Shown: one piece after another, positions 1,882 through 35,000 of the stretch
How the letters are laid out: each line of letters starts with the position of its first letter
Numbering within the stretch: position 1 is the stretch's first letter
Origin: Nemertoderma westbladi
Taxonomy: Eukaryota; Animalia; Xenacoelomorpha
DNA: 45,242 nucleotides
Direction of reading: 5' to 3'
Assembly (NCBI GenBank): GCA_032718475.1
Contig: JAUCBJ010001676.1
Coordinates: 1 to 45,242 of the forward strand
Notes under the pieces: model-generated
What the model was told of the DNA's origin: nothing
What the model saw: only the letters and a program-made list of their open reading frames with translations
Database searches by the model: none
Program-made: the position numbers and the translations under genes

Positions 1882-2000
1882 GTGAGTAGATAGTTTACAT
1901 TTCATTTCCCAGACGCCAGATTATCCATACAATCTGTATACTGGAAATGCCTATACGCAAAATATTTATAAGTATAGATTCAGGAAATATATTCGTCAAT

Positions 2001-8429: not shown

Positions 8430-11400
8430 GTAAGTGGGACCTGGAAATATTAGATAAACTCATTCAACTTAGCAGTTACCAAAACCCACAAGTAAGTGGG
8501 ACCTGGAAATATTAGATAAACTCATTCAACTTAGCAGCTACCAAAGCCCACAGGGAAGTGGGACCTGGAAATATTAGATAAACTCATTCAACTTAGCAGT
8601 TACCAAAACCCACAAGTAAGTGGGACCTGGAAATATTAGATAAACTCATTCAACTTAGCAGCTACCAAAGCCCACAGGTAAGTGGGACCTGGAAATATTA
8701 GATAAACTCATTCAACTTAGCAGTTACCAAAACCCATAGGTAAGTGGGACCTGGAAATATTAGATAAACTCATTCAACTTAGCAGTTACCAAAACCCACA
8801 GGGAAGTGGGACCTGGAAATATTAGATAAACTCATTCAACTTAGCAGCTACCAAAGCCCACAGGGAAGTGGGACCTGGAAATATTAGATAAACTCATTCA
8901 ACTTAGCAGTTACCAAAACCCATAGGTAAGTGGGACCTGGAAATATTAGATAAACTCATTCAACTTAGCAGCTACCAAAGCCCACAGGGAAGTGGGACCT
9001 GGAAATATTAGATAAACTCATTCAACTTAGCAGTTACCAAAACCCACAGGTAAGTGGGACCTGGAAATATTAGATAAATTCATTCAACTTAGCAGTTACC
9101 AAAACCCATAGGTAAGTGGTACCTGGAAATATTAGATAAACTCATTCAACTTAGCAGCTACCAAAGCCCACAGGGAAGTGGGACCTGGAAATATTAGATA
9201 AACTCATTCAACTTAGCAGTTACCAAAACCCACAGGTAAGTGGGACCTGGAAATATTAGATAAACTCATTCAACTTAGCAGCTACCAAAGCCCACAGGGA
9301 AGTGGGACCTAGAAATATTAGATAAACTCATTCAACTTAGCAGTAACCAAAACCCACAGGTAAGTGGGACCTGGAAATATTAGATAAATTCATTCAACTT
9401 AGCAGTTACCAAAACCCATAGGTAAGTGGTACCTGGAAATATTAGATAAACTCATTCAACTTAGCAGCTACCAAAGCCCACAGGGAAGTGGGACCTGGAA
9501 ATATTAGATAAACTCATTCAACTTAGCAGTTACCAAAACTCACAGGTAAGTGGGACCTGGAAATATTAGATAAACTCATTCAACTTAGCAGTTACCAAAG
9601 CCCACAGGGAAGTGGGACCTGGAAATATTAGATAAACTCATTCAACTTAGCAGTTACCAAAACCCACAGGTAAGTGGGACCTGGAAATATTAGATAAACT
9701 CATTCAACTTAGCAGTTACCAAAACCCACAGGTTAGTGCGACCTGGAAATATTAGATAAACTCATTCAACTTAGCAGCTACCAAAACCCACAGGGAAGTG
9801 GGACCTGGAAATATTAGATAAACTCATTCAACTTAGCAGTTACCAAAGCCCACAGGGAAGTGGGACCTGGAAATATTAGATAAACTCATTCAACTTAGCA
9901 GTTACCAAAACCCACAGGTAAGTGGGACCTGGAAATATTAGATAAACTCATTCAACTTAGCAGTTACCAAAACCCACAGGTTAGTGCGACCTGGAAATAT
10001 TAGATAAACTCATTCAACTTAGCAGCTACCAAAACCCACAGGGAAGTGGTACCTGGAAATATTAGATAAACTCATTCAACTTAGCAGCTACCAAAGCCCA
10101 CAGGGAAGTGGGACCTGGAAATATTAGATAAACTCATTCAACGCAGTTACCAAAACCCACAGGTAAGTGGGACCTGGAAATATTAGATAAACTCATTCAA
10201 CTTAGCAGTTACCAAAACCCACAGGGAAGTGGGACCTGGAAATATTAGATAAACTCATTCAACTTAGCAGCTACCAAAACCCACAGGGAAGTGGGACCTG
10301 GAAATATTAGATAAACTCATTCAACTTAGCAGTTACCAAAACCCACAGGTAAGTGGGACCTGGAAATATTAGATAAACTCATTCAACTTAGCATTTACCA
10401 AAACCCACAGGTAAGTGGGACCTGGAAATATTAGATAAACTCATTCAACTTAGCATTTACCAAAACCCACAGGTAAGTGGGACCTGGAAATATTAGATAA
10501 ACTCATTCAACTTAGCAGCTACCAAAGCCCACAGGGAAGTGGGACCTGGAAATATTAGATAAACTCATTCAACTTAGCAGTTACCAAAACCCACAGGGAA
10601 GTGGGACCTGGAAATATTAGATAAACTCATTCAACTTAGCAGTTACCAAAACCCACAGGGAAGTGGGACCTGGAAATATTAGATAAACTCATTCAACTTA
10701 GCAGCTATCAAAACCCATAGGTAAGTGGGACCTGGAAATATTAGATAAACTCATTCAACTTAGCAGTTACCAAAACCCACAGGGAAGTGGGACCTGGAAA
10801 TATTAGATAAACTCATTCAACTTAGCAGTTACCAAAACCCACAGGGAAGTGGGACCTGGAAATATTAGATAAACTCATTCAACTTAGCAGCTACCAAAAC
10901 CCATAGGTAAGTGGGACCTGGAAATATTAGATAAACTCATTCAACTTAGCAGCTACCAAAACCCATAGGTAAGTGGTACCTGGAAATATTAGATAAACTC
11001 ATTCAACTTAGCAGTTACCAAAACCCACAGGGAAGTGGGACCTGGAAATATTAGATAAACTCATTCAACTTAGCAGTTACCAAAACCCACAGGGAAGTGG
11101 GACCTGGAAATATTAGATAAACTCATTCAACTTAGCAGCTACCAAAACCCACAGGGAAGTGGTACCTGGAAATATTAGATAAACTCATTCAACTTAGCAG
11201 TTACCAAAACCCACAGGTAAGTGGGACCTGGAAATATTAGATAAACTCATTCAACTTAGCAGCTACCAAAACCCACAGGTAAATGGGACCTGGAAATATT
11301 AGATAAACTCATTCAACTTAGCAGTTACCAAAACCCACAGGGAAGTGGGACCTGGAAATATTAGATAAACTCATTCAACTTAGCAGTTACCAAAACCCAC

Positions 11401-14400
11401 AGGGAAGTGGGACCTGGAAATATTAGATAAACTCATTCAACTTAGCAGTTACCAAAACCCACAGGGAAGTGGGACCTGGAAATATTAGATAAACTCATTC
11501 AACTTAGCAGCTACCAAAACCCACAGGTAAGTGGGACCTGGAAATATTAGATAAACTCATTCAACTTAGCAGCTACCAAAACCCACAGGGAAGTGGGACC
11601 TGGAAATATTAGATAAACTCATTCAACTTAGCAGTTACCAAAACCCACAGGGAAGTGGGACCTGGAAATATTAGATAAACTCATTCAACTTAGCAGCTAC
11701 CAAAACCCACAGGGAAGTGGTACCGGGAAATATTAGATAAACTCATTCAACTTAGCAGTTACCAAAACCCACAGGTAAGTGGGACCTGGAAATATTAGAT
11801 AAACTCATTCAACTTAGCAGCTACCAAAACCCACAGGTAAGTGGGACCTGGAAATATTAGATAAACTCATTCAACTTAGCAGTTACCAAAACCCACAGGT
11901 AAGTGGGACCTGGAAATATTAGATAAACTCATTCAACTTAGCAGCTACCAAAACCCACAGGTAAGTGGGACCTGGAAATATTAGATAAACTCATTCAACT
12001 TAGCATTTACCAAAACCCACAGGTAAGTGGGACCTGGAAATATTAGATAAACTCATTCAACTTAGCAGCTACCAAAGCCCACAGGGAAGTGGGACCTGGA
12101 AATATTAGATAAACTCATTCAACTTAGCAGTTACCAAAACCCACAGGGAAGTGGGACCTGGAAATATTAGATAAACTCATTCAACTTAGCAGTTACCAAA
12201 ACCCACAGGGAAGTGGGACCTGGAAATATTAGATAAACTCATTCAACTTAGCAGCTACCAAAACCCATAGGTAAGTGGGACCTGGAAATATTAGATAAAC
12301 TCATTCAACTTAGCAGTTACCAAAACCCACAGGGAAGTGGGACCTGGAAATATTAGATAAACTCATTCAACTTAGCAGTTACCAAAACCCACAGGGAAGT
12401 GGGACCTGGAAATATTAGATAAACTCATTCAACTTAGCAGCTACCAAAACCCATAGGTAAGTGGGACCTGGAAATATTAGATAAACTCATTCAACTTAGC
12501 AGCTACCAAAACCCATAGGTAAGTGGGACCTAGAAATATTAGATAAACTCATTCAACTTAGCAGTTACCAAAACCCACAGGTAAGTGGGACCTGGAAATA
12601 TTAGATAAATTCATTCAACTTAGCAGTTACCAAAACCCATAGGTAAGTGGTACCTGGAAATATTAGATAAACTCATTCAACTTAGCAGCTACCAAAGCCC
12701 ACAGGGAAGTGGGACCTGGAAATATTAGATAAACTCATTCAACTTAGCAGTTACCAAAGCCCACAGGGAAGTGGGACCTGGAAATATTAGATAAACTCAT
12801 TCAACTTAGCAGCTACCAAAACCCATAGGTAAGTGGGACCTAGAAATATTAGATAAACTCATTCAACTTAGCAGTTACCAAAACCCACAGGTAAGTGGGA
12901 CCTGGAAATATTAGATAAACTCATTCAACTTAGCAGCTACCAAAACCCATAGGTAAGTGGGACCTAGAAATATTAGATAAACTCATTCAACTTAGCAGTT
13001 ACCAAAGCCCACAGGGAAGTGGGACCTGGAAATATTAGATAAACTCATTCAACTTAGCAGCTACCAAAACCCATAGGTAAGTGGGACCTAGAAATATTAG
13101 ATAAACTCATTCAACTTAGCAGTTACCAAAATCCACAGATAAGTGGGACCTGGAAATATTAGATAAATTCATTCAACTTAGCAGTTACCAAAACCCATAG
13201 GTAAGTGGTACCTGGAAATATTAGATAAACTCATTCAACTTAGCAGCTACCAAAGCCCACAGGGAAGTGGGACCTGGAAATATTAGATAAACTCATTCAA
13301 CTTAGCAGTTACCAAAGCCCACAGGGAAGTGGGACCTGGAAATATTAGATAAACTCATTCAAATGGGACCTGGAAATATTAGATAAACTCATTCAACTTA
13401 GCAGCTACCAAAACCCATAGGTAAGTGGGACCTAGAAATATTAGATAAACTCATTCAACTTAGCAGTTACCAAAACCCACAGGTAAGTGGGACCTGGAAA
13501 TATTAGATAAATTCATTCAACTTAGCAGTTACCAAAACCCATAGGTAAGTGGTACCTGGAAATATTAGATAAACTCATTCAACTTAGCAGCTACCAAAGC
13601 CCACAGGGAAGTGGGACCTGGAAATATTAGATAAACTCATTCAACTTAGCAGCTACCAAAACCCATAGGTAAGTGGGACCTGGAAATATTAGATAAACTC
13701 ATTCAACTTAGCAGCTACCAAAGCCCACAGGGAAGTGGGACCTGGAAATATTAGATAAACTCATTCAACTTAGCAGTTACCAAAGCCCACAGGGAAGTGG
13801 GACCTGGAAATATTAGATAAACTCATTCAAATGGGACCTGGAAATATTAGATAAACTCATTCAACTTAGCAGCTACCAAAACCCATAGGTAAGTGGGACC
13901 TGGAAATATTAGATAAACTCATTCAACTTAGCAGCTACCAAAACCCATAGGTAAGTGGGACCTGGAAATATTAGATAAACTCATTCAACTTAGCAGTTAC
14001 CAAAACCCACAGGGAAGTGGGACCTGGAAATATTAGATAAATTCATTCAACTTAGCAGCTACCAAAACCCATAGGTAAGTGGGACCTAGAAATATTAGAT
14101 AAACTCATTCAACTTAGCAGTTACCAAAACCCACAGGTAAGTGGGACCTGGAAATATTAGATAAATTCATTCAACTTAGCAGTTACCAAAACCCATAGGT
14201 AAGTGGTACCTGGAAATATTAGATAAACTCATTCAACTTAGCAGTTACCAAAACCCACAGGGAAGTGGGACCTGGAAATATTAGATAAATTCATTCAACT
14301 TAGCAGCTACCAAAACCCATAGGTAAGTGGGACCTAGAAATATTAGATAAACTCATTCAACTTAGCAGTTACCAAAACCCACAGGTAAGTGGGACCTGGA

Positions 14401-17400
14401 AATATTAGATAAATTCATTCAACTTAGCAGTTACCAAAACCCATAGGTAAGTGGTACCTGGAAATATTAGATAAACTCATTCAACTTAGCAGCTACCAAA
14501 GCCCACAGGGAAGTGGGACCTGGAAATATTAGATAAACTCATTCAACTTAGCAGCTACCAAAACCCATAGGTAAGTGGGACCTGGAAATATTAGATAAAC
14601 TCATTCAACTTAGCAGCTACCAAAGCCCACAGGGAAGTGGGACCTGGAAATATTAGATAAACTCATTCAACTTAGCAGTTACCAAAGCCCACAGGGAAGT
14701 GGGACCTGGAAATATTAGATAAACTCATTCAAATGGGACCTGGAAATATTAGATAAACTCATTCAACTTAGCAGCTACCAAAACCCATAGGTAAGTGGGA
14801 CCTGGAAATATTAGATAAACTCATTCAACTTAGCAGCTACCAAAACCCATAGGTAAGTGGGACCTGGAAATATTAGATAAACTCATTCAACTTAGCAGTT
14901 ACCAAAACCCACAGGGAAGTGGGACCTGGAAATATTAGATAAACTCATTCAACTTAGCAGCTACCAAAACCCATAGGTAAGTGGGACCTGGAAATATTAG
15001 ATAAACTCATTCAACTTAGCAGCTACCAAAACCCATAGGTAAGTGGGACCTGGAAATATTAGATAAACTCATTCAACTTAGCAGTTACCAAAACCCACAG
15101 GTAAGTGGGACCTGGAAATATTAGATAAATTCATTCAACTTAGCAGTTACCAAAACCCATAGGTTAGTGGTACCTGTAAATATTAGATAAACTCATTCAA
15201 CTTAGCAGCTACCAAAGCCCACAGGGAAGTGGGACCTGGAAATATTAGATAAACTCATTCAACTTAGCAGTTACCAAAGCCCACAGGGAAGTGGGACCTG
15301 GAAATATTAGATAAACTCATTCAACTTAGCAGCTACCAAAGCCCACAGGGAAGTGGGACCTGGAAATATTAGATAAACTCATTCAACTTAGCAGTTACCA
15401 AAGCCCACAGGGAAGTGGGACCTGGAAATATTAGATAAACTCATTCAACTTAGCAGTTACCAAAACCCACAGGTAAGTGGGACCTGGAAATATTAGATAA
15501 ACTCATTCAACGCAGTTACCAAAACCCACAGGTAAGTGGGACCTGGAAATATTAGATAAACTCATTCAACTTAGCAGTTACCAAAACTCACAGGGAAGTG
15601 GGACCTGGAAATATTAGATAAACTCATTCAACTTGCAGCTACCAAAACCCACAGGGAAGTGGGACCTGGAAATATTAGATAAACTCATTCAACTTAGCAG
15701 TTACCAAAACCCACAGGTAAGTGGGACCTGGAAATATTAGATAAACTCATTCAACTTAGCATTTACCAAAACCCACAGGTAAGTGGGACCTGGAAATATT
15801 AGATAAACTCATTCAACTTAGCATTTACCAAAACCCACAGGTAAGTGGGACCTGGAAATATTAGATAAACTCATTCAACTTAGCAGCTACCAAAGCCCAC
15901 AGGGAAGTGGGACCTGGAAATATTAGATAAACTCATTCAACTTAGCAGTTACCAAAACCCACAGGTAAGTGGGACCTGGAAATATTAGATAAACTCATTC
16001 AACTTAGCAGCTACCAAAGCCCACAGGGAAGTGGGACCTGGAAATATTAGATAAACTCATTCAACTTAGCAGTTACCAAAACCCACAGGGAAGTGGGACC
16101 TGAGATAAACTCATTCAACTTAGCAGTTACCAAAACCCACAGGGAAGTGGGACCTGGAAATATTAGATAAACTCATTCAACTTAGCAGCTACCAAAACCC
16201 ACAGGGAAGTGGGACCTGAAAATATTAGATAAACTCATTCAACTTAGCAGCTACCAAAACCCATAGGTAAGTGGGACCTGGAAATATTAGATAAACTCAT
16301 TCAACTTAGCAGTTACCAAAACCCACAGGGAAGTGGGACCTGGAAATATTAGATAAACTCATTCAACTTAGCAGTTACCAAAACCCACAGGGAAGTGGGA
16401 CCTGGAAATATTAGATAAACTCATTCAACTTAGCAGCTACCAAAACCCATAGGTAAGTGGGACCTGGAAATATTAGATAAACTCATTCAACTTAGCAGCT
16501 ACCAAAGCCCACAGGGAAGTGGGACCTGGAAATATTAGATAAACTCATTCAACGCAGTTACCAAAACCCACAGGTAAGTGGGACCTGGAAATATTAGATA
16601 AACTCATTCAACTTAGCAGTTACCAAAACCCACAGGGAAGTGGGACCTGGAAATATTAGATAAACTCATTCAACTTAGCAGTTACCAAAACCCACAGGGA
16701 AGTGGGACCTGGAAATATTAGATAAACTCATTCAACTTAGCAGCTACCAAAACCCATAGGTAAGTGGGACCTGGAAATATTAGATAAACTCATTCAACTT
16801 AGCAGCTACCAAAACCCATAGGTAAGTGGTACCTGGAAATATTAGATAAACTCATTCAACTTAGCAGTTACCAAAACCCACAGGGAAGTGGGACCTGGAA
16901 ATATTAGATAAACTCATTCAACTTAGCAGTTACCAAAACCCACAGGGAAGTGGGACCTGGAAATAGTAGATAAATTCATTCAACTTAGCAGCTACCAAAA
17001 CCCATAGGTAAGTGGTACCTGGAAATATTAGATAAACTCATTCAACTTAGCAGTTACCAAAACCCACAGGGAAGTGGGACCTGGAAATATTAGATAAACT
17101 CATTCAACTTAGCAGCTACCAAAACCCACAGGTAAGTGGGACCTGGAAATATTAGATAAACTCATTCAACTTAGCAGTTACCAAAACCCACAGGGAAGTG
17201 GGACCTGGAAATATTAGATAAACTCATTCAACTTAGCAGTTACCAAAACCCACAGGGAAGTGGGACCTGGAAATATTAGATAAACTCATTCAACTTAGCA
17301 GCTACCAAAACCCATAGGTAAGTGGGACCTGGAAATATTAGATAAACTCATTCAACTTAGCAGCTACCAAAACCCACAGGGAAGTGGGACCTGGAAATAT

Positions 17401-17840
17401 TAGATAAACTCATTCAACTTAGCAGTTACCAAAACCCACAGGGAAGTGGGACCTGGAAATATTAGATAAACTCATTCAACTTAGCAGCTACCAAAACCCA
17501 TAGGTAAGTGGGACCTGGAAATATTAGATAAACTCATTCAACTTAGCAGTTACCAAAACCCACAGGGAAGTGGGACCTGGAAATATTAGATAAACTCATT
17601 CAACTTAGCAGTTACCAAAACCCACAGGGAAGTGGGACCTGGAAATATTAGATAAACTCATTCAACTTAGCAGCTACCAAAACCCATAGGTAAGTGGTAC
17701 CTGGAAATATTAGATAAACTCATTCAACTTAGCAGTTACCAAAACCCACAGGGAAGTGGGACCTGGAAATATTAGATAAACTCATTCAACTTAGCAGTTA
17801 CCAAAGCCCACAGGGAAGTGGGACCTAGAAATATTAGATA
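8380..17840 (+). repeat. 62-bp minisatellite, ~150 copies, made of the last ~50 nt of the exon plus the 5' splice site
   Basis: Unit TGGAAATATTAGATAAACTCATTCAACTTAGCAGTTACCAAAACCCACAG|GTAAGTGGGACC; the first copy is the real exon end. Confidence 0.98.
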
Positions 17841-18029
17841 CAAATTTGTTATTCAACACGAATTTTGCATAATCACTTTTTGTGTCCGTATTTCTTCAAA
17901 CTGTCCGACTAAATAAATACGTACAGAAAGTAAAAAAAATACGCACAAAAAATAGTCCAAAGGTTCGGGATGAGTTATTTAAACTGACAAGTAAATTTAT
18001 TATGTTTTAATTCTATTTCATTTTACTAG

Positions 18030-18209
18030 GGGGAGGTTTTGGAGGCGGTTACCACAGCAACAGTGATGCTGCTCTCCAGCCACTCCCATCTGGGCGACAA
18101 CATACCGGCGTTGGGGCACCTCACACACCTTGTAAAGGCATTGGGATGTCGTAACGAGGCTGTTGTCAAGGCAATGACTAGAGTTATACATCAGATTTCA
18201 ACCAATGGG
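18030..18209 (+). CDS. DNAJC13: DNAJC13 exon (GEVLEAVTTA...IPALGHL...ISTNG), phase 0-0
   Basis: tacTAG acceptor, GTGAGT at 18210; 180 nt; D.IP.LGHL motif. Confidence 0.92.
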
Positions 18210-18379
18210 GTGAGTTTTCAGTGCAATACCTATCTGTATCTGATGTATTACGGGTGGTGTCGTAAGATCCTCTATTATAATGGCTCTGATCTTTTAGCAT
18301 GAGGTATATGGTTATGTTTTCTTTGCGGTCCGGCCGCTACTTCTTTAACATTGTTTTATTTACCGTGTATTTACCATCC

Positions 18380-18600
18380 TTGTTCCGCCTCCGCTTTGCA
18401 GGACATAGCTTTCGCCGTGAGGACCAGCCAGTGAATAATCTTGTACTTTGGCAGCCTCATGGAGTGAATAAGCATGGTGGACAGCCCATGACTTTCTTGA
18501 GACGCATCTTAAAGGACACTGGCCTTGAAGATGCGGATAATCTCGCGAAAGTCATTGGTGATAGGGAGTTGTGGCGGTGCAACTTTGTTGATCAGCCGGC
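18380..18600 (+). mobile_element. 3'-terminal fragment of a non-LTR retrotransposon ORF2 (RTE-like LINE)
   Basis: RLRFAGHSFRREDQPV..LVLWQP....G.P.TF...LKDTGL.....DRELWR matches the typical RTE ORF2 C-terminus; a (TAG)-like tract at ~18710-18740 may be its tail. Confidence 0.75.
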
Positions 18601-19134
18601 ATAGCATTCTTAATGCGCGCTGCATTGGGTTTGCCAATTGTGGATTGCATGGTGGTGTCAAAATGTTTTTGTTAAGCTGGCATAGCATCTCAATGTGCAG
18701 CGGACCGATTATAGTAGTTAGTATTAGTTATAGTAGTAGTGCCCTCCTACCCCTACCCGATGGTGGTGTTATTGCACATTCCCAGGTTCATTACGGGGGC
18801 CAATGTACTTGTACTTCCGTAATTGGTAATCTTGACTCTTAGACCCAGCGGTACAATAGGAAACTGGCTTCCGCGGGGAAGTAAAGAAAGAGTTGGTTGG
18901 TAACGGAGTCTTTAATATTGGGAGTTATAGTGGCGCCATACCTGCCTTTAAGGTAACCGCCAAGAGAGTGGAGACTTCGGGTTGTCTCCGCTTTGTCGCG
19001 TTTCCATTCATTTATCCCCTCTCATTTCTTGTCATTTTCTTTTCACCACCGTCATTGTTTCATAAACAATAAATTGTAGATTTGTATTTTAGTGTACTCA
19101 ACTGAGGCATTACTTTCATTATATCTTCATATAG

Positions 19135-19419
19135 GTCTGTGTGGAGAACATGTGCACTCAACAGTGCATCCCCCCGTTAATGGTCGCAATGAAGAAGAAT
19201 ACCGATTGCATAGTTTTAGTTTGCGAAACCTTGAACCGAATATTCTCTCGCCCTTCGACTGACCCACTCATTGGCCAAGCCATTGAGTGCGGGATTATAC
19301 CATACCTGTTGCTAATACTCGACAAACCTGTGTCGTCACTGCCTAATATCTCGGCCACAAAAGCGCAAGTAGTGAAAACGTTAAAGTCAATGTTGGAGAG
19401 TGAAAAATATGGGGAGCAG
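19135..19419 (+). CDS. DNAJC13: DNAJC13 exon (VCVENMCTQQCIPPLM...ATKAQVVKTLKSM...YGEQ), phase 0-0
   Basis: ATKAQ.VK.LK.M and YGEQ motifs; AG at 19133-19134, GT at 19420; 285 nt. Confidence 0.93.
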
Positions 19420-19460
19420 GTTTGTAAAAATATAACTTATCTATCTAATTGAAATCATAT

Positions 19461-20098
19461 AAGCCCGTGAAGCCAATTTTAAAAATCGCTTATACACATT
19501 TAATCTCAATAATTTCACACGTGGCTTAAATCAATTGAAAGCGGAGAGTCTTACACGTCTTTTGACACCACAATTAATTAAATTCAAGATGGGAAAGATT
19601 GTTGAAATTCTGTTCACAATTGCAAACTCTGCGGATTACCTGATCTGTATGCTAGCACTCAGCCCTTGCACTTGCAGCTTACACCATTTAAGTTGGGTTT
19701 ACCGGTGACTAGTGCACATTTTTAATATTCAAGTAGCCTTACCAATTATTATAGTACCGGCTGACCGGTATTAAAAGCTTTTTTAAATCTAACCTGTAGT
19801 CCTTTCCGTAATCAATACAGATTGGAATGTAGTACTGCTGCTGGAAACAGCATTTTATCAATGTTCATCATCATGAATTTATTTAATTGCCGTGTCAAAA
19901 GACGTGCAAGACTCCCCGCTTTCAATTGATTTAAGCCACGTGTGAAATGATTGAGATTATAAGTGTAGACCTACTTAAATGTATCTAAAATCACCCTCCA
20001 TAGAAACCAATATAAGAACTTATCTGAGCACTGCGTAGTGACGTCAAATATGTAGCAGCCAATCACAGCCGATTTTCAAAATTGGCCTCCCGGGCCTA
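19461..20098. mobile_element. Non-autonomous foldback/MITE-like DNA element
   Basis: Outer imperfect inverted repeats (AGCCCGTGAAGCCAATTTTAAAAATCG versus CGATTTTCAAAATTGGCCTCCCGGGCC) and inner ~100-bp inverted repeats (~19490-19590 versus ~19870-19968); possible TA TSD. Confidence 0.7.
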
Positions 20099-20208
20099 CT
20101 CAAACCCGCCATTTCGACCGTTTCCACGTGTTTTTACAAAAAAAACACACCGATACTCAAACCCGCCATTTCGACCGTTTCCACGTGTTTTTACAAAAAA
20201 AACACACC
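20097..20208. repeat. 57-bp tandem duplication
   Basis: TACTCAAACCCGCCATTTCGACCGTTTCCACGTGTTTTTACAAAAAAAACACACC occurs twice. Confidence 0.9.
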
Positions 20209-20425
20209 CCGCCACTGGATTCAGGGCACCTTGTTACCTCTTATTCGATTGTTTCTAGCCCAACAATTTTTTCGCGCACCAGCCCTAATGTAATTTATAA
20301 AAGTGGACTGTTATGAAATATTTTATCAACTATAGCAACGTGTATTAGGCTGATATAGTCCATTATACTATTTTATTGCGAGTCCAGTCCATGAATAACC
20401 TCATCTTTAATTTTGTTTGTTTTAG

Positions 20426-20525
20426 GTCAATGAACTTCTGCAGAAAAGTAGTGTTTGGGCGGAATACAGAGACCAGAAACACGATTTGTTTATAAAAGAT
20501 ACCCCAGTAGCTGGTTACTTAACTG
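20426..20525 (+). CDS. DNAJC13: DNAJC13 exon ([34 protein letters not shown]), phase 0-1
   Basis: Conserved [10 protein letters not shown] and AGYLTG motifs; tttAG acceptor, GTGAGT at 20526. Not in the ORF track. Confidence 0.95.
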
Positions 20526-23500
20526 GTGAGTTGATTTAACTATAACCCCAGTAGCGGGTTACTTAACTGGTGAGTTGATTTAACTATTTAACCCCAGTAG
20601 CGGGTTACTTAACTGGTGAGTTGATTTATCTATAACCACAGTAGCGGGTTACTTAACTGGTGAGTTGATTTAACTATAACCCCAGTAGCTGGTTACTTAA
20701 CTGGTGAGTTGATTTAACTATAACCCAGTAGCGGGTTACTTAACTGGTGAGTTGATTTAACTATAACACAGTAGCGGGTTACTTAACTGGTGAGTTGATT
20801 TAACTATAACCCCAGTAGCGGGTTACTTAACTGGTGAGTTGATTTAACTATAACCCCAGTAGCGGGTTACTTAACTGGTGAGTTGATTTAACTATAACCC
20901 CAGTAGCGGGTTACTTAACTGGTGAGTTGATTTAACTATAACCCCAGTAGCGGGTTACTTAACTGGTGAGTTGATTTAACTATAACCCCAGTAGCGGGTT
21001 ACTTAACTGGTGAGTTGATTTAACTATAACCCCAGTAGCGGGTTACTTAACTGGTGAGTTGATTTAACTATAACCCAGTAGCGGGTTACTTAACTGGTGA
21101 GTTGATTTAACTATAACCCCAGTAGCGGGTTACTTAACTGGTGAGTTGATTTAACTATAACTCCAGTAGCGGGTTACTTAACTGGTGAGTTGATTTAACT
21201 ATAACCCAGTAGCGGGTTACTTAACTGGTGAGTTGATTTAACTATAACCCCAGTAGCGGGTTACTTAACTGGTGAGTTGATTTAACTATAACCCCAGTAG
21301 CGGGTTACTTAACTGGTGAGTTGATTTAACTATAACCCAGTAGCGGGTTACTTAACTGGTGAGTTGATTTAACTATAACCCCAGTAGCGGGTTACTTAAC
21401 TGCTGAGTTGATTTAACTATAACACAGTAGCGGGTTACTTAACTGCTGAGTTGATTTAACTATAACCCCAGTAGCGGGTTACTTAACTGGTGAGTTGATT
21501 TAACTATAACCCCAGTAGCGGGTTACTTAACTGGTGAGTTGATTTAACTATAACCCCAGTAGCGGGTTACTTAACTGGTGAGTTGATTTAACTATAACCC
21601 CAGTAGCGGGTTACTTAACTGGTGAGTTGATTTAACTATAACCCAGTAGCGGGTTACTTAACTGGTGAGTTGATTTAACTATAACCCCAGTAGCGGGTTA
21701 CTTAACTGGTGAGTTGATTTAACTATAACCCAGTAGCGGGTTACTTAACTGGTGAGTTGATTTAACTATAACCCCAGTAGCGGGTTACTTAACTGGTGAG
21801 TTGATTTAACTATAACCCCAGTAGCGGGTTACTTAACTGGTGAGTTGATTTAACTATAACCCCAGTAGCGGGTTACTTAACTGGTGAGTTGATTTAACTA
21901 TAACCCCAGTAGCGGGTTACTTAACTGGTGAGTTGATTTAACTATAACCCCAGTAGCGGGTTACTTAACTGGTGAGTTGATTTAACTATAACCCCAGTAG
22001 CGGGTTACTTAACTGGTGAGTTGATTTAACTATAACCCAGTAGCGGGTTACTTAACTGGTGAGTTGATTTAACTATAACCCCAGTAGCGGGTTACTTAAC
22101 TGGTGAGTTGATTTAACTATAACCCCAGTAGCGGGTTACTTAACTGGTGAGTTGATTTAACTATAACCCCAGTAGCGGGTTACTTAACTGGTGAGTTGAT
22201 TTAACTATAACCCCAGTAGCGGGTTACTTAACTGGTGAGTTGATTTAACTATAACCCCAGTAGCGGGTTACTTAACTGGTGAGTTGATTTAACTATAACC
22301 CAGTAGCGGGTTACTTAACTGGTGAGTTGATTTAACTATAACCCCAGTAGCGGGTTACTTAACTGGTGAGTTGATTTAACTATAACCCCAGTAGCGGGTT
22401 ACTTAACTGGTGAGTTGATTTAACTATAACCCCAGTAGCGGGTTACTTAACTGGTGAGTTGATTTAACTATAACCCCAGTAGCGGGTTACTTAACTGGTG
22501 AGTTGATTTAACTATAACCCCAGTAGCGGGTTACTTAACTGGTGAGTTGATTTAACTATAACCCAGTAGCGGGTTACTTAACTGGTGAGTTGATTTAACT
22601 ATAACCCAGTAGCGGGTTACTTAACTGGTGAGTTGATTTAACTATAACCCCAGTAGCGGGTTACTTAACTGGTGAGTTGATTTAACTATAACCCCAGTAG
22701 CGGGTTACTTAACTGGTGAGTTGATTTAACTATAACCCCAGTAGCGGGTTACTTAACTGGTGAGTTGATTTAACTATAACCCCAGTAGCGGGTTACTTAA
22801 CTGGTGAGTTGATTTAACTATAACCCAGTAGCGGGTTACTTAACTGGTGAGTTGATTTAACTATAACCCAGTAGCGGGTTACTTAACTGGTGAGTTGATT
22901 TAACTATAACCCCAGTAGCGGGTTACTTAACTGGTGAGTTGATTTAACTATAACCCCAGTAGCGGGTTACTTAACTGGTGAGTTGATTTAACTATAACCC
23001 CAGTAGCGGGTTACTTAACTGGTGAGTTGATTTAACTATAACCCAGTAGCGGGTTACTTAACTGGTGAGTTGATTTAACTATAACCCAGTAGCGGGTTAC
23101 TTAACTGGTGAGTTGATTTAACTATAACCCCAGTAGCGGGTTACTTAACTGGTGAGTTGATTTAACTATAACCCCAGTAGCGGGTTACTTAACTGGTGAG
23201 TTGATTTAACTATTTAACCCCAGTAGCGGGTTACTTAACTGGTGAGTTGATTTAACTATAACCCCAGTAGCGGGTTACTTAACTGGTGAGTTGATTTAAC
23301 TATAACCCCAGTAGCGGGTTACTTAACTGGTGAGTTGATTTAACTATAACCCCAGTAGCGGGTAACTTAAATGGTGAGTTGATTTAACTATAACCCCAGT
23401 AGCGGGTTACTTAACTGGTGAGTTGATTTAACTATAACCCAGTAGCGGGTTACTTAACTGGTGAGTTGATTTAACTATAACCCAGTAGCGGGTTACTTAA

Positions 23501-23740
23501 CTGGTGAGTTGATTTAACTATAACCCCAGTAGCGGGTTACTTAACTGGTGAGTTGATTTAACTATAACCCCAGTAGTGGGTTACTTAACTGGTGAGTTGA
23601 TTTAACTATAACCCAGTAGCGGGTTACTTAACTGGTGAGTTGATTTAACTATAACACAGTAGCGGGTTTCTTAACTGGTGAGTTGATTTAACTATAACCC
23701 CAGTAGCGGGTTACTTAACTGGTGAGTTGATTTAACTATA
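20501..23740 (+). repeat. 43-44-bp minisatellite, ~74 copies, made of the last 25 nt of the exon plus the 5' splice site
   Basis: Unit ACCCCAGTAGCGGGTTACTTAACTG|GTGAGTTGATTTAACTATA; the first copy is the real exon end. Confidence 0.98.
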
Positions 23741-23859
23741 GATATTATTATTGAGCGATGTCTATCTAAAAGCGAACCACATAGTGAACCCGTTCTGACA
23801 ACCTCCCTTCCATAACAGTTTAAATTTTAACGTATTAATATTTTTTTCGCTGTGTTTAG

Positions 23860-23960
23860 GTCCGGGTGTCGCCGGATATCTAACCCAAGGAACCACACAC
23901 GGGACCCGCAATGCCCCACCACCAATAGCCGACCAAGATGGGGGTTTTACTAACAGCTGA
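23860..23960 (+). CDS. DNAJC13: DNAJC13 last coding exon (GPGVAGYLTQGT...APPPIADQDGGFTNS*)
   Basis: Completes AGYLTGPGVAGYLT...PPP, the characteristic DNAJC13 C-terminus; tttAG acceptor; TGA at 23958-23960. Confidence 0.93.
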
Positions 23961-24038
23961 TAGTATTTATTACCTTAGAGAGTTGGGTGTCTGTCTCTTA
24001 CAATCGCGAATTTATTATGTAACTCGAATTTATATGCA

Positions 24039-24044
24039 AATAAA
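24039..24044 (+). promoter_or_regulatory. Candidate polyadenylation signal for DNAJC13 (a second AATAAA lies at 24121-24126)
   Basis: AATAAA about 80 nt after the stop codon; AT-rich context, so chance occurrence is possible. Confidence 0.4.
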
Positions 24045-27000
24045 ATCTCTCTACTTCACTGGCTCTACTTCTCAAACACATATTTTATATATCAACTGAT
24101 TTATTTTTAGTAACTTGATTAATAAATTAACGTCTAAAATCAACGAGTAATTTGACTTGTTTTTTAGTAATCGATTTTTTGTTTTTCATTATAATTTTTT
24201 CATTATTATACAATATTATCAGTGAATGTCCAACTTTTACCAGTTTTGATTCCTAAAAGAATGTTATAATTTAACACAGTCTCCTCATATAAAACATTGT
24301 TGATTTGTGTTGCCTCTCTATTAGCTGGTCTAATACGCATCGACAGCCTCTTCTCCCAGCCTATATGGTCTGGCATTTACCTAATCAAATCAAATCCATT
24401 CATTGTTCGAGTGTTTATGTACAGTATAGGACCTACTGATATTATAAACAACAGCAGGAAATTATTTGAATATGTCGAAGATGGAAATTATTGAGTGGAA
24501 ATGGATCGCCTTTAGGTTTTTCCCACAGAATATCAGGTTTACGAAACTGATAAATTTGGCTGGAACGGGAGGTTTGGCATCTCAGAGTCACATATTTCAT
24601 ATTTTATTCGGTTGTTGAACTAACAGTATCATTAGTTTTTTTTATTATTATTTTATTTGATTAAATAATTAATTTACGCCTATCAAACACACCAATTAAA
24701 TTATTAAGGACTATTTGCCTCTCTTTAGATTAATTATTATTCCTGATATTTGTGGCTTCCTGATTGATAATGTAATCCGTGAATTATTTAAATAATTATG
24801 TGTAACGCCACATCACCACCCTTACCGCACCAAACTATACAGTATTATTAATAAATTAATGTTGTTATTAATAATAATAACTAAACTCTTGCTGTTTCTT
24901 TAGTTTCATTAAGTGCCCTCTAGAAAAAGGATGATTCGCACTTCCGTAATTAGAATAAAGTAAATGTAAGTCTTTTGCTACATTTAGGTAATAAAATTAA
25001 ATGATTAGCTTTAATAATTTGTTAGCAATCTCTTTATTTATTTCATTATATTTCATTCCTGAATCCGTTATAACCTTATAGGGTAGAACATATTATTTAC
25101 CTTAATAGCGATATAATGTAGACTTTACAGCTATTCGCGAATACTTTACAGTTAAACTGAAACTTGTAATTGATGTTCCGCTGTCATGTTTATTTTTCAC
25201 AGATCCTTGTCCTTATAATTTCCCCCTACCGACAGTTCAGGAGAGTGGCGTGGGTATCCTCTATCTGTCTCGTTATAGATAGTCAGCTGTTTAAGGGCAG
25301 GCGTTGTTGATAAATATTTATATAAATACTAGCTACGACCAATTAGCATACTGTACTGCGCTAAAATTTGCAATAACTTCTGACCCGGTGGGTGAAATTT
25401 GTTATTATAAGATGCAAAAACGTTTTCTATTTTGATTTTATATCAGAAATCGTTTCGTATCGTTACAATTTTGGAATAAATCTCGTGCATACTTGTTGCA
25501 AAGTACTTTACAGTGTTATGATTCTCGTTAACTTTTTTTTCACTCACTCACTACGTTTGTTCGTTTGACTCAACCGCTCGGGTCAATCAGCGTACTGTAA
25601 AGTCTTAGTTTATACGCAATGTATTTATATTGATTACTTTGGCTTCGTGTTATAATTCTAATGAATGTTTACCTGGTGCGATTAACTACGCTTCCTCGGG
25701 CTGCCAGATAATAATTGTTTGGTCGGAGCTACGCGTAGCTAAATATTATTATTAAGATTTGTGCTATTTTTCATAACTAATGCAAGTGTTATTAGATTAA
25801 TTACAATAATAATAATAATTTCAGTTGTATTGTATTATTTGTTTGTGTATGAAGTTGAATTATTTCGTTAATTTCTAAAATTTAATTTGGTTAATATATT
25901 TTGCAGTTTATATTTAGAAATTAGTGACTATTTTAATTAATTGGGTCTATAATTTTTTCTTAACTAATTGAACTTGGCTGCCGCATGACAATGTATAGTT
26001 CTCTCAGAATAGACCATGCCTCACGCAGCTATAGTGTAAGTGATTGGGGGCTGAGTGGTTATCTGAATCAATGGGTCTTTATTTCACTGATAGTCACTAT
26101 ATGACTAAGGTAATGGGTAGTATTTGTTACTAAAGAGTTATTTGAAAAACAGCCTCTTACATTAACGCCATTTTTCCATCAGGCCCCGTATGTTTATGAG
26201 GTATGAGGCTTGATTATAACAAACACAGTTTGCGAAACTCATTCAATTTATTTGTTCTTTAAAAGTTATGTAACTATTAGTCTCTCTAAGGGATCCTTGG
26301 GCAATCCTTCTCAACCTCTTCGGTAGAAAGTGATGAAAAACACTTAATGGGAACACTTAATAAAGGCCTAGGCCTAGGTTATAACCCCCTTTGCTCAAAT
26401 TTTGAAATTGTTGTTTCTTTATTTCGTCCAGAGCAGAATTTAATGAGGATTACAAATCTGAAAACCGCTTAGTGAGACCTGCTTTAGTTCTCGAGTTATA
26501 ACTGTTTTTACGTATGTCGGCCGACAAACAGACTAGATTCCCCCAAACATTAAAACTGACATCGGAAATGGAATCAGTGACCCCGAAAACCCCCGTAATA
26601 AAAGTTTTAGCTCGTTGGTGTGCATCCTTCGTACCAGAAATAATTAACCAACCAGAACACGGACAGTCACTTTTGGCGGGACGGTTTAAACTTTGAAGGG
26701 CATTTTCTCGGAATGACATTTTTCCTTTTTCTAATTTTCTACTCCTCCGTCATTTTTCAACCAATTTTCTTAGTTTTTGGCTCATTCGAACGAGCTTTGG
26801 AAGCTCTTTAAAAGTTATCGTAGGAATTTTGATAAATTTTACCATTTTGTGTAATTAGCCAATTTTAATTAAAAATATGGTAATTAATTAATTAATTAAT
26901 TCAAATAAAATAGGCTAATTAAAGATTATATTAGATAACTTTTGTAGAATCGATGACGCTAAGTCTAAAAAAGTTGGTTTCATGAAATTTGGACCAAGAT

Positions 27001-27798: not shown

Positions 27799-28467
27799 TA
27801 GGTCATAGAGCACTTCCACGCACTTTCATATGACCTAACAGTTAGGTCATAGAGCACTTCCACGCACTTTCACATGACCTAACAGTTAGGTCATAGAGCA
27901 CTTCCACGCACTTTCATATAACCTAACAGTTAGGTCATAGAGCACTTCCACACACTTTCATAAGACCTAACAGTTAGGTCATAGAGCACTTCCACGCACT
28001 TTCATATGACCTAACAGTTAGGTCATAGAGCACTTCCACGCACTTTCATATTACCTAACAGTTAGGTCATAGAGCACTTCCACGCACTTTCATATTACCT
28101 AACAGTTAGGTCATAGAGCACTTCCACGCACTTTCATATGACCTAACAGTTAGGTCATAGAGCACTTCCACGCACTTTCATATGACCTAACAGTTACGTC
28201 ATAGAGCACTTCCACGCACTTTCATATGACCTAACAGTTAGGTCATAGAGCACTTCCACGCACTTTCATATGACCTAACAGTTAGGTCATAGAGCACTTC
28301 CACGCACTTTCATATGACCTAACAGTTAGGTCATAGAGCACTTCCACGCACTTTCATATGACCTAACAGTTAGGTCATAGAGCACTTCCACGCACTTTCA
28401 TATGACCTAACAGTTAGGTCATAGAGCACTTCCACGCACTTTCATATGACCTAACAGTTAGGTCATA
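27799..28467. repeat. 44-bp tandem array, ~15 copies, each containing the palindrome TATGACCTAAC-A-GTTAGGTCATA
   Basis: Unit GGTCATAGAGCACTTCCACGCACTTTCATATGACCTAACAGTTA. Confidence 0.96.
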
Positions 28468-28483
28468 GGCGTCAAGGGGTTAA
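28468..28483 (-). mobile_element. piggyBac terminus with TTAA target site (TTAA|CCCCTTGACGCC on the minus strand)
   Basis: ...GGCGTCAAGGGG|TTAA at 28480-28483, on the 5' side of the minus-strand transposase relic. The matching other end was not identified. Confidence 0.7.
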
Positions 28484-29297: not shown

Positions 29298-30809
29298 ATG
29301 CTCCTTCAGATAGCAATAGGAGTTGGTACGTTTACACTGGTGGTCTACGTGGCGCGAACAATCCAATGGCGATTGAGATACAAGATGCCACCCGCGCCAC
29401 ACAGCTGGCCGTTACTAGGCAATGCATTTTCGGGACCGAAAAATAAAAAAATGTACCAAACACTAATGGAATGGAGTAAGGAATTCGGCCCGGTTATTAC
29501 ATTGTCTGTGGGTCCGTTTGTTAACGTTGTTACGCTAAACGATATCGAGTCAATTAGAGAAGCGTTCGTACGTAAAGGCAACGAATTCGCTGGGCGACCC
29601 AAGTTTTATTCCGCCGAAATAACAAGCGATAACTACAGCGACATCGCCGCCGCAGATTTCTCGCCACAGTGGAAGTTCCTAAGGAAAACCGCCGCGGGCG
29701 CTTTCAAACATTTTGCGTCGCGGAATCAGGTTGAGGAATTGTCAAGAAAATCCTTCAGGTCAATTACAAGTAGCATCGACCAAAAGGTGGTGGATAAAGA
29801 CGTCCAAAGACATGGGTTCGACCCTGAAGAGACTCTTGCATTACTTGTATTCAATACGGTTGCGGGGCTCTGTTTCAACAAGATCTATGATCCGCAAGAC
29901 AAGGTATTTCAACACATTCACCAACTCTTTGTAGACTTGATTAAAGTTGGCGGAAACGGACTTGTTGCCGATTATATACCGATATTTCGTTACTTTCCGA
30001 CGTCCACTGTGAGGATAATTAAAAGAGCCATGGAGGATTTCTTGGGGTTCATAGAGAAAGAGATCACTGAGCACAAAGAGGAGTTCGATGCTGATCATAT
30101 GAATGATCTCACAGACTACCTCATCTACGAACAGAAACAGTCTCTAGACCACCAAGGGCAACACGATTTCTCAGATTTGGTTCTCAAACATATCCTTTCG
30201 GATACATTTGGCGCCGGTATAGATACAACAAATCGATTGCTTTACTGGGGGCTAGCTTTAATGGCTACCAATCCAGATGTACAGGAACGTTGTGCTACTG
30301 AGTTAAATGAAGAAGTTGGACCCGAGGGGTTACCGGAACTTGGGCAGATGCCTCGATTACCGTACACGGTTGCCACAGTCCACGAGCTTCTACGCTACGC
30401 CACAGTGGCGCCGCTATCCGTTCCACATTCCACCACGCAGGACGTGGAACTACTGGGATATAAACTCCCAAAGGGCACCATGGTGCTCCCCAATCTGTAC
30501 GCGGTCCACTACGACGCCACGAGATGGACTAACCCGGAAGAGTTTAACCCGAATCGGTTTATCCTCAACGGAGAATTCGTTATGAGTTACTCCGAAGGTT
30601 TTCTGCCATTTTCTGCAGGTAGACGAGTCTGTCTAGGTGAAGCTGTTGCTAAACCCGAACTGTTTATCCTTTTCAGCTGTCTGGTACACACGTACGAGTT
30701 TTCTCCTGCTCCAGATAGCCCCCCACCCAATGTGTCTCCCTCGGAGGAAACTTCCGCATTCGAGTTTATGCCGCATCAATACAAAGTTGCGGTCCGGAGA
30801 CGATACTAA
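29298..30809 (+). CDS. Cytochrome P450, clan 2 (CYP17/CYP1/CYP2-like), intronless, 503 aa
   Basis: First ATG at 29298 (ccaacATG); N-terminal membrane anchor, PPAP..WPLLGN hinge, WxxxR, I-helix FGAGIDTT, ELLR, FNPNRF and heme motif FSAGRRVCLG; TAA at 30807-30809. Confidence 0.95.
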   Translation: MLLQIAIGVGTFTLVVYVARTIQWRLRYKMPPAPHSWPLLGNAFSGPKNKKMYQTLMEWSKEFGPVITLSVGPFVNVVTLNDIESIREAFVRKGNEFAGRPKFYSAEITSDNYSDIAAADFSPQWKFLRKTAAGAFKHFASRNQVEELSRKSFRSITSSIDQKVVDKDVQRHGFDPEETLALLVFNTVAGLCFNKIYDPQDKVFQHIHQLFVDLIKVGGNGLVADYIPIFRYFPTSTVRIIKRAMEDFLGFIEKEITEHKEEFDADHMNDLTDYLIYEQKQSLDHQGQHDFSDLVLKHILSDTFGAGIDTTNRLLYWGLALMATNPDVQERCATELNEEVGPEGLPELGQMPRLPYTVATVHELLRYATVAPLSVPHSTTQDVELLGYKLPKGTMVLPNLYAVHYDATRWTNPEEFNPNRFILNGEFVMSYSEGFLPFSAGRRVCLGEAVAKPELFILFSCLVHTYEFSPAPDSPPPNVSPSEETSAFEFMPHQYKVAVRRRY

Positions 30810-31824: not shown

Positions 31825-32369
31825 TGTGACGGGATCCAGATGGGATCCCGGTTTATCCGGTTTTGTCAGTTCACGCGTCCCTGCCGTGTGTGAAGAGTAA
31901 AAGAGTTTCGGTTGTTCGACGTGTATAATGTTTGGGTATATGGATATAGATACGGTATAATGGTGGATAAAGTTATTGCATATGGAAGGCGGGAGACGGT
32001 AATTGAAATCCCGGTACTTCCCTAACTAAACTATTGTAAGCTACAGTAACACCAGTAACTAGCACTGAGATAACTGAACTGATATGATTACAGGTTACTG
32101 GTTATATTGCACGGTGGCCTTATTGCTACTCAATCGATGCCTTTCCCCCCTCCTGATTGGTTGGAACCCTTGTTGGCGCCCTTTGGAGTGTTCCCGTTCA
32201 CTCCACCTGTTCTCTCTGGGTTAGGGGTTTGGCCCCTGACCCTCATTGTGTGTTTCCTTCCCATTCTTATTGGGATGGCACGAGTTGGTTAATTACCCAA
32301 TCTCGTGGCTCCCAATATTGTTTATCGGCTTAACTTTATGGGGTGTTAGCGGGATTGAATAAGGTAACA
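31825..32369 (-). repeat. 3' LTR, 545 bp, TG...CA
   Basis: TGTGAC...GTAACA; adjacent CTCCCCCCAT is the PPT (ATGGGGGGAG on minus); nearly identical to 44958-45242. Confidence 0.92.
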
Positions 32370-33012
32370 CTCCCCCCATGCTATCTTCCCGGTAAGAAGA
32401 TAGCATCAACCAAGAAAGTGCGCTACAATCCCACTGGATCCCGATCTAGTATCGGGTGTGGGGTGGAATTCTTTTCTCTCGGAGCCGGCTTTCCAGGCCG
32501 CTCCCTATGGGTATGATAACGCTACCCTGTGTGCCTGGCGTCTCATGTCGGGCCGATCGCGCTCACCTCTCACACGATTTTTGTTTCCCCAACACTTTCG
32601 CCCTATCTCTTCTCCACTCTCACCCTAACTCTCGCACACCCTCGGGCCTCCTCGTCCCTCACTCAGCCTCTTATTCCTCCCCCTCCACACTAGAATTGCA
32701 TCCGCACTCTGTCCGCGCTTCGCACTCTCACTCCGTCCCTCAACCCCACTTTGACTACCTCATCCCTTCTGACGAATCTCACCCCCCTCCCATGCCGTCG
32801 CACTCAAGAAGTGTGAAATCGTCTGGTGTCTCGTCCATAGTGCCATAGTCAGTTTACCCCCCAGTCCCAGTAGCTAATTGAGAAAGGTTGTATGACTATA
32901 GTACTTACTCCGAACGTATATATTTGTAGATTACTGATTGCTACGTACGTACATACAAATTGTACTTATATGATTATTCACATTAATTAAATTTGTACAT
33001 AGTTCGCACGTC

Positions 33013-34093
33013 TCACATGGCGCCTTCCAGGCGCACTACATCAAAGCCCCAGTCCATCCCTCCTTGGCGTCCGTGGTGTCCCCGAAAGTTGCACTTCGGA
33101 TATCGGTTCTGCAACCGTGGACATGCTCCCATCCTGTGGCTCGTCTCGTCGCAGTTGAGACAGCTGGTCCCTTTCTGGAACCGGTACAAGCAGCTCCTTT
33201 CCTGGTGGGTCTGTCTCCCACAGTAGCCGCAACCGAGTACCAATGTCTCTCGCCCCACGTCGTCTTTCATCCCAAGCGATCTCCGCGGTCTGTGGAGTCG
33301 CTGATAGGCGAATTTCTCCACGTTAGCGTCTCTGTCTACGTCGATCTCTCCGCCCCTCTTGGGCATCGTCTCCCCGAATACTACCCGTGGTGCCGTCCCC
33401 GGTTGCTTGCCCAACCTGATAGTGCTCCCCGCGAAATCCATCGCCGGCTCCTTGTGCACCCAGGCCCGCTTGCCGGGTTTGTCCCAGAAGGCTCTCGCCC
33501 CACTGGTCGTCACCACCCTCCCGCCAACCCAGTCCGTGTCCGAGTGGCCTATCCTCTCGATGGGTGGCATCTCTCCGAACTCGTCGTCGTCCTCATCCTC
33601 CTCTCGCAGTGGTTCCAACCCCGGTATCCCGGTGGACCCACTATGTCCCTTTCCACCTTGGTTCCTGCCCGTAACTCTCCATTCCTCAAGCTCCCCTAGC
33701 CTCCTTTGCGGTTGGTCGCCCTCGGCGCCCGCTGGTGTGGGAATCGCTTGCAATCCCGACGTCGACTGTTTCAGTGATCCCACCGTCCACCCTAGTTCTT
33801 TCCCTAGAGACTCCCCCGAACTCCCTGACGAAGCCCAACGAAGTTCGTCTAAGGCTGCTTGTTCCTCGAAGCCGTAGCTCTGCGCCCTAGCTTCCTCCTC
33901 CCTCTCCTCTGCTTCTCTCCTCTCTCACAAGTTTGCCTGCCATCTCGAACTCTGCCCGATCGCTCACCCGTAAGTGGTGCCTTGCCAAGGCGCAAACGTG
34001 ATGAGTGATGGGTTTAGGTGGTTTAAGCTCAGTTCGATGGCCTATCTCTTTCTGAATTTTCGAGTTATTGCCTATTCTTACTACTGTTACCAT
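33013..34093 (-). CDS. Accessory 3' ORF of the retrotransposon with tandem CCHC zinc knuckles (one frameshift near 33900-33925)
   Basis: ATG at 34093; the 33013 frame is open up to ~33924; contains CGYCGRQTHQERSC and CLNCDETSHRMGAC (both CX2CX4HX4C) plus degenerate YPKCNFRGHHGRQG. Confidence 0.7.
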
Positions 34094-34364
34094 AATTTGT
34101 TCCCCTTCTTAGCCCTATTCTTATTCTAATTTTATTTTGATTTTAATTTCAATCCCACTACCTTACTGTTTCCTATTACTTGCGACTGCCTATGGATTAT
34201 TCTATCTCCTAATCCACATTCTGGCCTACTCTGTGGGCCTGTGCAGTACAGTAGTATATGTCGCGCGGCCTACACGATCTATCCAACTGTACTCCTATGC
34301 CCCCCTCTTGCTACTAACTGCTAACTGATATCTATATCCTATATACCCTTCTACCTCTTACTCT

Positions 34365-35000
34365 TTCTCTAACTAACGGTACTACGTACCCTCTAACTCT
34401 CTACCTAACGGTACTACGTACCCTCTAACTCTTCTCTAACTAACGGTACTACGTACCCTCTAACTCTAACTCTTCTCTAACTAACGGTACTATGTACCCT
34501 CTAACTCTAACTCTTCTCTAACTAACGGTACTACGTACCCTCTAACTCTAACTCTTCTCTAACTAACGGTACTACGTACCCTCTAACTCTAACTCTTCTC
34601 TAACTAATGGTACTACGTACCCTCTAACTCTAACTCTTCTCTAACTAACGGTACTACGTACCCTCTAACTCTAACTCTTCTCTAACTAACGGTACTACGT
34701 ACCCTCTAACTCTAACTCTTCTCTAACTAACGGTACTACGTACCCTCTAACTCTCTAACTAACTAGTGGTACTACGTACCCTCTAACTCTAACTAACTAG
34801 TGGTACTACGTACCCTCTAACTCTAACTAACTAGTGGTACTACGTACCCTCTAACTCTAACTAATTAACTAGCGGTACTTACGTACCCTCTAACTCTAAC
34901 TAACTAGCGGTACTTACGTACCCTCTAACTCTAACTAACTAGCGGTACTACGTACCTTCTAACTAACTCTCTGACTAGGTACTACGTACCTCTTAACTAA
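34365..35000. repeat. 31-41-bp tandem array, ~17 copies, centred on the hairpin GGTAC-TAC-GTACC
   Basis: Typical unit CTAACGGTACTACGTACCCTCTAACTCTAACTCTTCTCTAA; lies between the pol stop and the accessory ORF. Confidence 0.93.

Follow-up and report, generated by a model that had tools for sequence, protein, structure and literature searches.

The window analyzed here, the whole 45,242-nt stretch of Nemertoderma westbladi DNA (GCA_032718475.1, contig JAUCBJ010001676.1, positions 1 to 45,242, forward strand), contains between 653 and 23960 nine exons separated by eight introns, all of the GT..AG type (8/8), whose splicing yields a 523-residue open frame closed by a stop codon. The last intron of this gene is filled almost completely by a 44-bp tandem repeat that starts within the preceding exon and spans its splice donor. 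Four sequencing runs (X1–X4, the four among six listed runs that contain the stretch), none recorded as RNA, were examined; X4 yielded a spliced contig that supports part of the exon model. The features of the gene are as follows.

653-19419, plus strand: seven upstream exons (653-883, 1255-1429, 1681-1881, 2334-2424, 8222-8429, 18030-18209, and 19135-19419), from the spliced open frame and homology
1452-1696, plus strand: sister array spanning an acceptor, 35 bp, 7 copies, from Tandem Repeats Finder and the frame
8380-17840, plus strand: sister array spanning a donor, 62 bp, about 150 copies, from Tandem Repeats Finder and unit matching
20426-20525, plus strand: penultimate coding exon, 100 nt, with the first YLT motif at its end, from the open spliced frame and the X4 contig (20424-20527, 0 differences)
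20501-23740, plus strand: 44-bp minisatellite, 74.0 copies with 98% matches by Tandem Repeats Finder
20526-20531, plus strand: authentic 5' splice site GTGAGT, the donor used in the spliced X4 contig
20526-23859, plus strand: last intron, 3334 nt, GT..AG, about 96% array, from the spliced contig and the exon model
20660-20703, plus strand: sole intronic unit retaining the GCT codon of the exon (at 20688), from codon comparison of the units
21403-21451, plus strand: two adjoining donor positions broken at +1 (CTGAGT at 21403 and 21446), from splitting the array at the donor
23860-25011, plus strand: last exon, coding at 23860-23960 (second YLT motif, PPP tail, and stop) and then 3' UTR, from the X4 contig and the exon model

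The gene and its surroundings

Judged from its sequence, the array-bearing gene is DNAJC13/RME-8, because the spliced product is homologous to P0002, the best full-length protein among the matches listed (52% identity, 514 aa, E 3.6e-179 when 161 proteins were searched locally), and because RME-8_N, GYF_2, and DnaJ domains are present in all four full-length matches scanned (4/4, P0002 included). These matches come from a search with one exon against 1.84 billion representatives, which gave 486 matches at E up to 0.001, the best 150 being listed. The start of the gene lies beyond the window, and its own RME-8_N, GYF_2, and DnaJ parts lie upstream. Three other searches were empty within their scope: a PDB sequence search with the exon 19135-19419 (0 matches), a word-index protein search with the same exon (none of 35 candidates, in proteins of 168-2000 residues, as against the roughly 2200 residues of the full-length homologues), and a Pfam scan of five single exons. 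The 3' UTR of the last exon reaches at least to the end of the X4 contig, with AATAAA at 24954 and 24990. More X4 contigs (depths 40-169) cover 24982-25300, beyond the end of the spliced contig, and may represent an extension of the 3' UTR, a separate transcript, or repeat sequence. At 23861, the second base of the last exon, sample S2 (runs X2 and X3) shows a T>A change, which is synonymous in a split Gly codon.

Four large tandem arrays make up 78% of the 23.3-kb stretch 653-23960. Three of the four span a splice site, for which the chance is about 0.01-0.02 under a uniform seed model (post hoc, n = 4). The complex array at 2608-7948 (5.3 kb; sub-units of 21, 27, and 29 nt) is wholly intronic and spans no splice site. 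In the 35-bp array, GCTAG is present in all seven copies, and the last copy alone runs into a frame-keeping exon (start 1681). Ahead of the acceptor at 651-652, about 99 copies of ACTTT (154-650) form a 500-nt pyrimidine-rich tract. In the penultimate intron, 19492-20287 contains one or more abundant dispersed repeats that include inverted parts and reach very high contig depth in each of the four runs (4/4), possibly a non-autonomous DNA transposon. Downstream of the gene lie a second, unrelated 44-bp array (27799-28468; 15 copies, 98% matches) whose unit contains the internal inverted repeat TAGGTCATA...TATGACCTA; an intronless cytochrome P450 open reading frame (29298-30809; 503 aa, PF00067), with relatives of 43% identity or less, the best named ones being CYP17-, CYP1-, and CYP2-like and the best full-length ones being found in echinoderms, hemichordates, and molluscs; and, on the minus strand, an LTR retrotransposon (31825-45242) with direct repeats 97% identical to each other (31825-32102 and 44958-45242, the latter truncated where the window stops) and an internal part that looks Bel/Pao-like by eye.

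Structure and variation of the 44-bp array

Each unit combines the last 25 nt of the penultimate exon (20501-20525) with the first 19 nt of the intron (20526-20544), so that the end of the exon is itself the first part-unit of a head-to-tail array whose terminal unit crosses the authentic boundary, a boundary confirmed by the spliced contig, and the splice signal is reiterated within the intron. Splitting the array at the donor gives 74 donor positions, 72 with GTGAGT and two with CTGAGT; besides the authentic site at 20526 there are thus 71 intact intronic copies, identical to the authentic donor over -3..+8 and, like it, matching the donor consensus at 7 of 11 positions. Around the boundary (marked by a slash), 71 of the 72 intact sites read CTG/GTGAGT and one reads ATG/GTGAGT. 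The initial annotation had described about 74 GTGAGT donors behind a 100-nt exon, nearly all of them intact and in the CTG/GTGAGT context, with two GCTGAG variants near 21400-21450, and these counts bear the description out. The 73 full units comprise 45 of the 44-nt consensus, 17 lacking one C, and 11 rarer variants; in every one (73/73) a CAG lies exactly 18 nt 5' of the next donor position. Elsewhere in the window the unit was not found, the best outside matches being 11-12 nt, and RNA folding of 20426-20700 (z = -0.46) indicated no special structure that would mask or expose a donor.

The pattern of variation is that expected of concerted evolution with less homogenized edges: two unit types account for 45 + 17 of the 73 units, and of the 11 rare-variant units, 7 fall among the outermost 20 of the 73 (Fisher p = 0.007, post hoc). 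Selection keeping the donors intact was considered and rejected, since they show no excess conservation; 2 of the 13 substitutions in the 73 units hit the donor G, one of the more often altered positions of the unit. It had also been proposed that the array was homogenized apart from the exon copy. The Ala codon is GCG in 71 copies and GTG in one; the two copies with GCT are that of the exon (20510) and that of one intronic unit (20688). The proposal is supported, the separation depending on one base and fitting an ordinary edge effect; GCT is not exclusive to the exon.

The sister 62-bp array offers a comparison within the same gene. GT is kept in 75 of its 146 matched units, while 71 of the 146 have GGAAGT and are interspersed with the intact units, in agreement with the earlier statement that this array is less intact than the 44-bp one; read-through there meets a stop after seven codons.

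The amplified segment encodes VAGYLT, and, as had been pointed out, the motif occurs again in the next exon (23868-23885 in the last exon). A link between this duplication and the array was rejected: the two copies agree at 12 of 18 nt, and each of the six codons shows a synonymous difference. In the spliced product, YLT1 and YLT2 stand nine residues apart (VAGYLTGPGVAGYLT), a spacing matching that of Y2206 and Y2215 in human DNAJC13 (PMC12404652). Among the 57 homologues whose alignment reaches the motif region, YLT-type motifs number two in 16 (several of them from one cluster), one in 11, none by pattern in 30, and three in 0. The double YLT is thus ancient and independent of the array.

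The array is present in two samples and is no assembly artefact. High-depth contigs of the 44-bp unit were found in X1, X2, and X3, and X3 contains, at a depth of 557, a joint that goes back by 44. X2 and X3 derive from a single sample, and many SNPs and indels distinguish its flank from the window; X1 matches the window almost exactly, may be its source, and is not independent. That the repeat is a product of assembly, or an expansion private to the sequenced individual, is accordingly extremely improbable. Depth ratios below the assembled count would favor it: in X1 the unit-to-flank depth is about 41-50, for words that the window contains 64-69 times; in X2/X3 it is about 21-30, or 47 if the lowest normalizer is taken. 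The tandem joint and the high-depth unit contigs in a second sample with divergent flanks, together with the structured variation among units, speak against it. As depth is not copy number, these ratios give a weak hint of array length variation between individuals.

Donor usage and the products of other donors

Donor use can be read from X4, where one spliced contig (2143 nt, depth 88.4) aligns with 0 differences to 19134-19417 and, starting at the neighboring contig position, to 20424-20527, and then extends into 23859-25011 across a GT..AG joint. Its joints run from 19419 to 20426 and from 20525 to 23860 with no extra base. By position arithmetic, contig positions 1145 and 1144 correspond to 20525 and 23860 of the window, leaving no room for a unit or a microexon. 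The contig shows 0 differences from the exon and one difference from the GCG last unit, and its loose end is true exon sequence; it therefore carries the GCT version of the exon. The depth of X4 on the repeat bins (12.6 and 38.6) is wholly explained by this single contig, and no other X4 contig bears the repeat unit, as far as contigs, which drop rare variants, can tell. X4 is labelled 'DNA?' and was judged to be transcript-derived since the contig is spliced and unique intron sequence is without cover; the contig could also be a retrocopy, in which case it would still reflect an mRNA that had been spliced. Gaps in X4 cover (repeat and unique intron bins) and a hole in X1 (20325-20471) were not counted as absence. 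The evidence is one assembled contig from one run, from an individual that may or may not carry the array.

Within this scope, the first donor (20526) is used in the dominant contig of one run, giving mRNA from the authentic site through the joint 20525-23860. Exclusive use of the first donor, the outcome that the initial annotation had set against its own proposal, thus holds for that dominant contig of one run, and low-level use of donor 2, or of a microexon, alongside the first donor would be compatible with the contigs. Since the single spliced sequence recovered takes the first donor, the copies behind it are probably not in use.

The products of the remaining donors can be predicted. Translation from the donors 20570, 20616, 20660, 20704, and 23722, and of the read-through, always gives the same truncated tail, …YLTGELI-stop, because the stop sits within the first unit, ending 14 nt into the intron. 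The statement made earlier that read-through would delete the GPGVAGYLT...PPP tail is supported by these translations, and use of a downstream donor would remove the tail as well. The stop ends 30 nt before the junction when donor 2 is used and at least 76 nt before it when a later one is used. The 50-55-nt rule for decay derives mainly from vertebrates; given that rule, donor 2 alone would likely escape decay, and transcripts from donor 3 onward would likely be degraded. The truncated form keeps YLT1 and loses YLT2. In human cells, mutation of YLT1 increased endosomal localization, mutation of YLT2 had no overt phenotype, and removal of the whole tail had a stronger effect than mutation of YLT1 (PMC12404652). 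Because whole-tail removal outweighs the YLT1 mutation there (PMC12404652), loss of the distal tail in the truncated form may, by analogy, not be silent.

In line with the initial annotation, a leaky series of donors can be envisaged, in which the nearest one or two copies are used measurably, giving the …YLTGELI-stop protein or a decayed mRNA, and the array length tunes the level of the full-length product. Such leakage is unlikely, although several facts are compatible with it: the copies equal the real donor over -3..+8, the stop from donor 2 lies close enough to the junction for probable escape from decay, two extra donors are used in human 6-16 and CBS, as summarized in PMC1557585, and loss of the C-terminus alters DNAJC13 localization in human cells (PMC12404652). 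Against them, the dominant contig uses donor 1 and no further X4 contig contains repeat sequence, and the truncated form would retain YLT1, the motif whose mutation has an effect, while dropping YLT2, whose mutation has no overt one (PMC12404652). Moreover, every downstream donor gives the same protein, and therefore the length could not grade the product.

A second possibility concerns the CAG of each unit, which could serve as an acceptor and, with the next GT as a donor, define in-frame 18-nt exons, each adding a copy of VAGYLT, that is, of the autoinhibitory YLT1. The array would then be a bank of 73 in-frame microexons, 70 of them with VAGYLT, from which splicing and array length would set the number of brakes in the DNAJC13 tail and hence endosome binding. 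We consider this very improbable. In its favor are the constant position of the CAG (73/73 at 18 nt before the donor) with 70 units encoding VAGYLT in frame and the tail left intact, a branch-like word TACTTAAC about 30 nt upstream of each CAG, and the tested role of YLT1 as a negative regulator of endosome binding in human DNAJC13 (PMC12404652). On the other hand, no insert is present in the spliced contig, and each CAG has a weak pyrimidine tract (0.53 in the variant unit and 10/17 in the consensus unit, versus 0.59-0.76 in the real acceptors). A donor also separates the branch-like word from the AG, one length in three would be in frame by chance, and more than two such motifs occur in none of the 57 homologues.

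Two further candidates were rejected. In a chain of recursive splice sites, an acceptor AG is directly followed by a donor GT; here 18 nt separate the internal AG from the GT that follows it in every unit (73/73). A 26-nt GT..AG mini-intron in each unit was ruled out as well, 26 nt being too short for an intron.

Origin of the array and comparison with known boundary repeats

By far the most probable reading is that the repeat has grown from the terminal 25 bases of the exon together with the initial 19 of the last intron, that the first donor is used, and that the 71 intact copies behind it are likely not used but carried along as passengers in a minisatellite that is probably neutral. A local duplication across the exon-intron boundary may have provided the seed, and a 3-nt ATA microhomology found at both ends of the array may be related to this event. 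Slippage or unequal exchange would then have expanded and homogenized the units, leaving odd ones at the edges. Of the donors behind the 100-nt exon, the spliceosome likely picks the one furthest upstream, as in experiments on human F7. If donor 2 were used on rare occasions, the tail would end in YLTGELI-stop; from donor 3 on, the stop would be unchanged but would lie at least 76 nt before the junction, and the transcripts would likely be degraded if the 50-55-nt rule applies.

The spliced X4 contig, the lack of special conservation of the donors, the edge-biased variants, and the loss of GT in the sister array (71/146) all point toward neutral passengers. Published precedents agree: only the most upstream donor is used in F7, LMNB2, and PDGF (PMC1557585), and the lancelet boundary repeats called 'mirages' persist without apparent disturbance of splicing (PMC3087553). 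Weighing against the passenger reading are the restriction of the RNA evidence to one contig, the copies being as consensus-like as the real donor (7/11 each), and the use of two nearby pseudo-donors in human 6-16 and CBS (PMC1557585). The neutral model does not by itself explain why three of the four large arrays span a splice site. A functional role of the extra donors, as initially suggested, is not supported: the sole spliced sequence found uses the first donor, and donor integrity merely tracks array uniformity.

Seen in this light, the array is one more splice-boundary minisatellite, unusually long, and matters little as such. It does illustrate that 71 perfect decoy donors need not block normal mRNA production, and it provides a natural test substrate, for the GCT/GCG difference marks the donor used by a read and makes leakage countable. 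The same gene carries two more boundary arrays for comparison, one at a donor with about half of its donors lost and one at an acceptor. Should the microexon reading be true, it would amount to a repeat-encoded control of regulatory-motif copy number, which would be surprising.

The array is worth comparing with the boundary minisatellites already described, a known class ('mirage' or F7 IVS7 type) to which it belongs. In a weak literature search, none of the best 10 of 678 papers joined DNAJC13/RME-8 with a repeat. The closest counterpart is the VNTR in intron 7 of human F7 (Borensztajn et al. 2006, PMC1557585), a 37-bp repeat whose first unit also lies across the boundary and whose intronic donor copies are identical to the authentic one; these pseudo-donors are functional yet unused unless the upstream donor is mutated, so that the most upstream donor is used in both cases. 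In contrast to F7, with 5-9 copies and 4 exonic nt per unit, the present array has 74 copies and 25 exonic nt per unit, resides in the last intron of an invertebrate gene, and contains an exon-derived AG in each unit (PMC1557585). Use of the first donor is deduced here from one contig, whereas in F7 it was demonstrated by mutation (PMC1557585).

The lancelet mirages in Adh3 and the globins BflGb6/BflGb9 (Ebner et al. 2010, PMC3087553) likewise are tandem boundary duplications at donors and acceptors in a marine invertebrate, with length instability and with concerted evolution that spares the cluster edges, and with splicing apparently unaffected, as appears to be the case here. They have fewer copies than the present array (3-6 in BflGb6 versus 74) and lower uniformity (81-100% versus 98%). 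The model proposed for them holds that the exonic part of a unit could turn into a new exon (PMC3087553). Finally, 6-16 intron 2, CBS intron 13, LMNB2, and PDGF intron 4 in human also repeat the donor behind the authentic one, 10-25 times (PMC1557585). Two extra donors are used in 6-16 and CBS and the authentic donor only in LMNB2 and PDGF (PMC1557585); unlike in 6-16 and CBS, use of extra donors was not seen in the contigs examined here. With its 74 copies, the array in the last intron of the N. westbladi gene is longer than the published cases compared, which have at most about 25.
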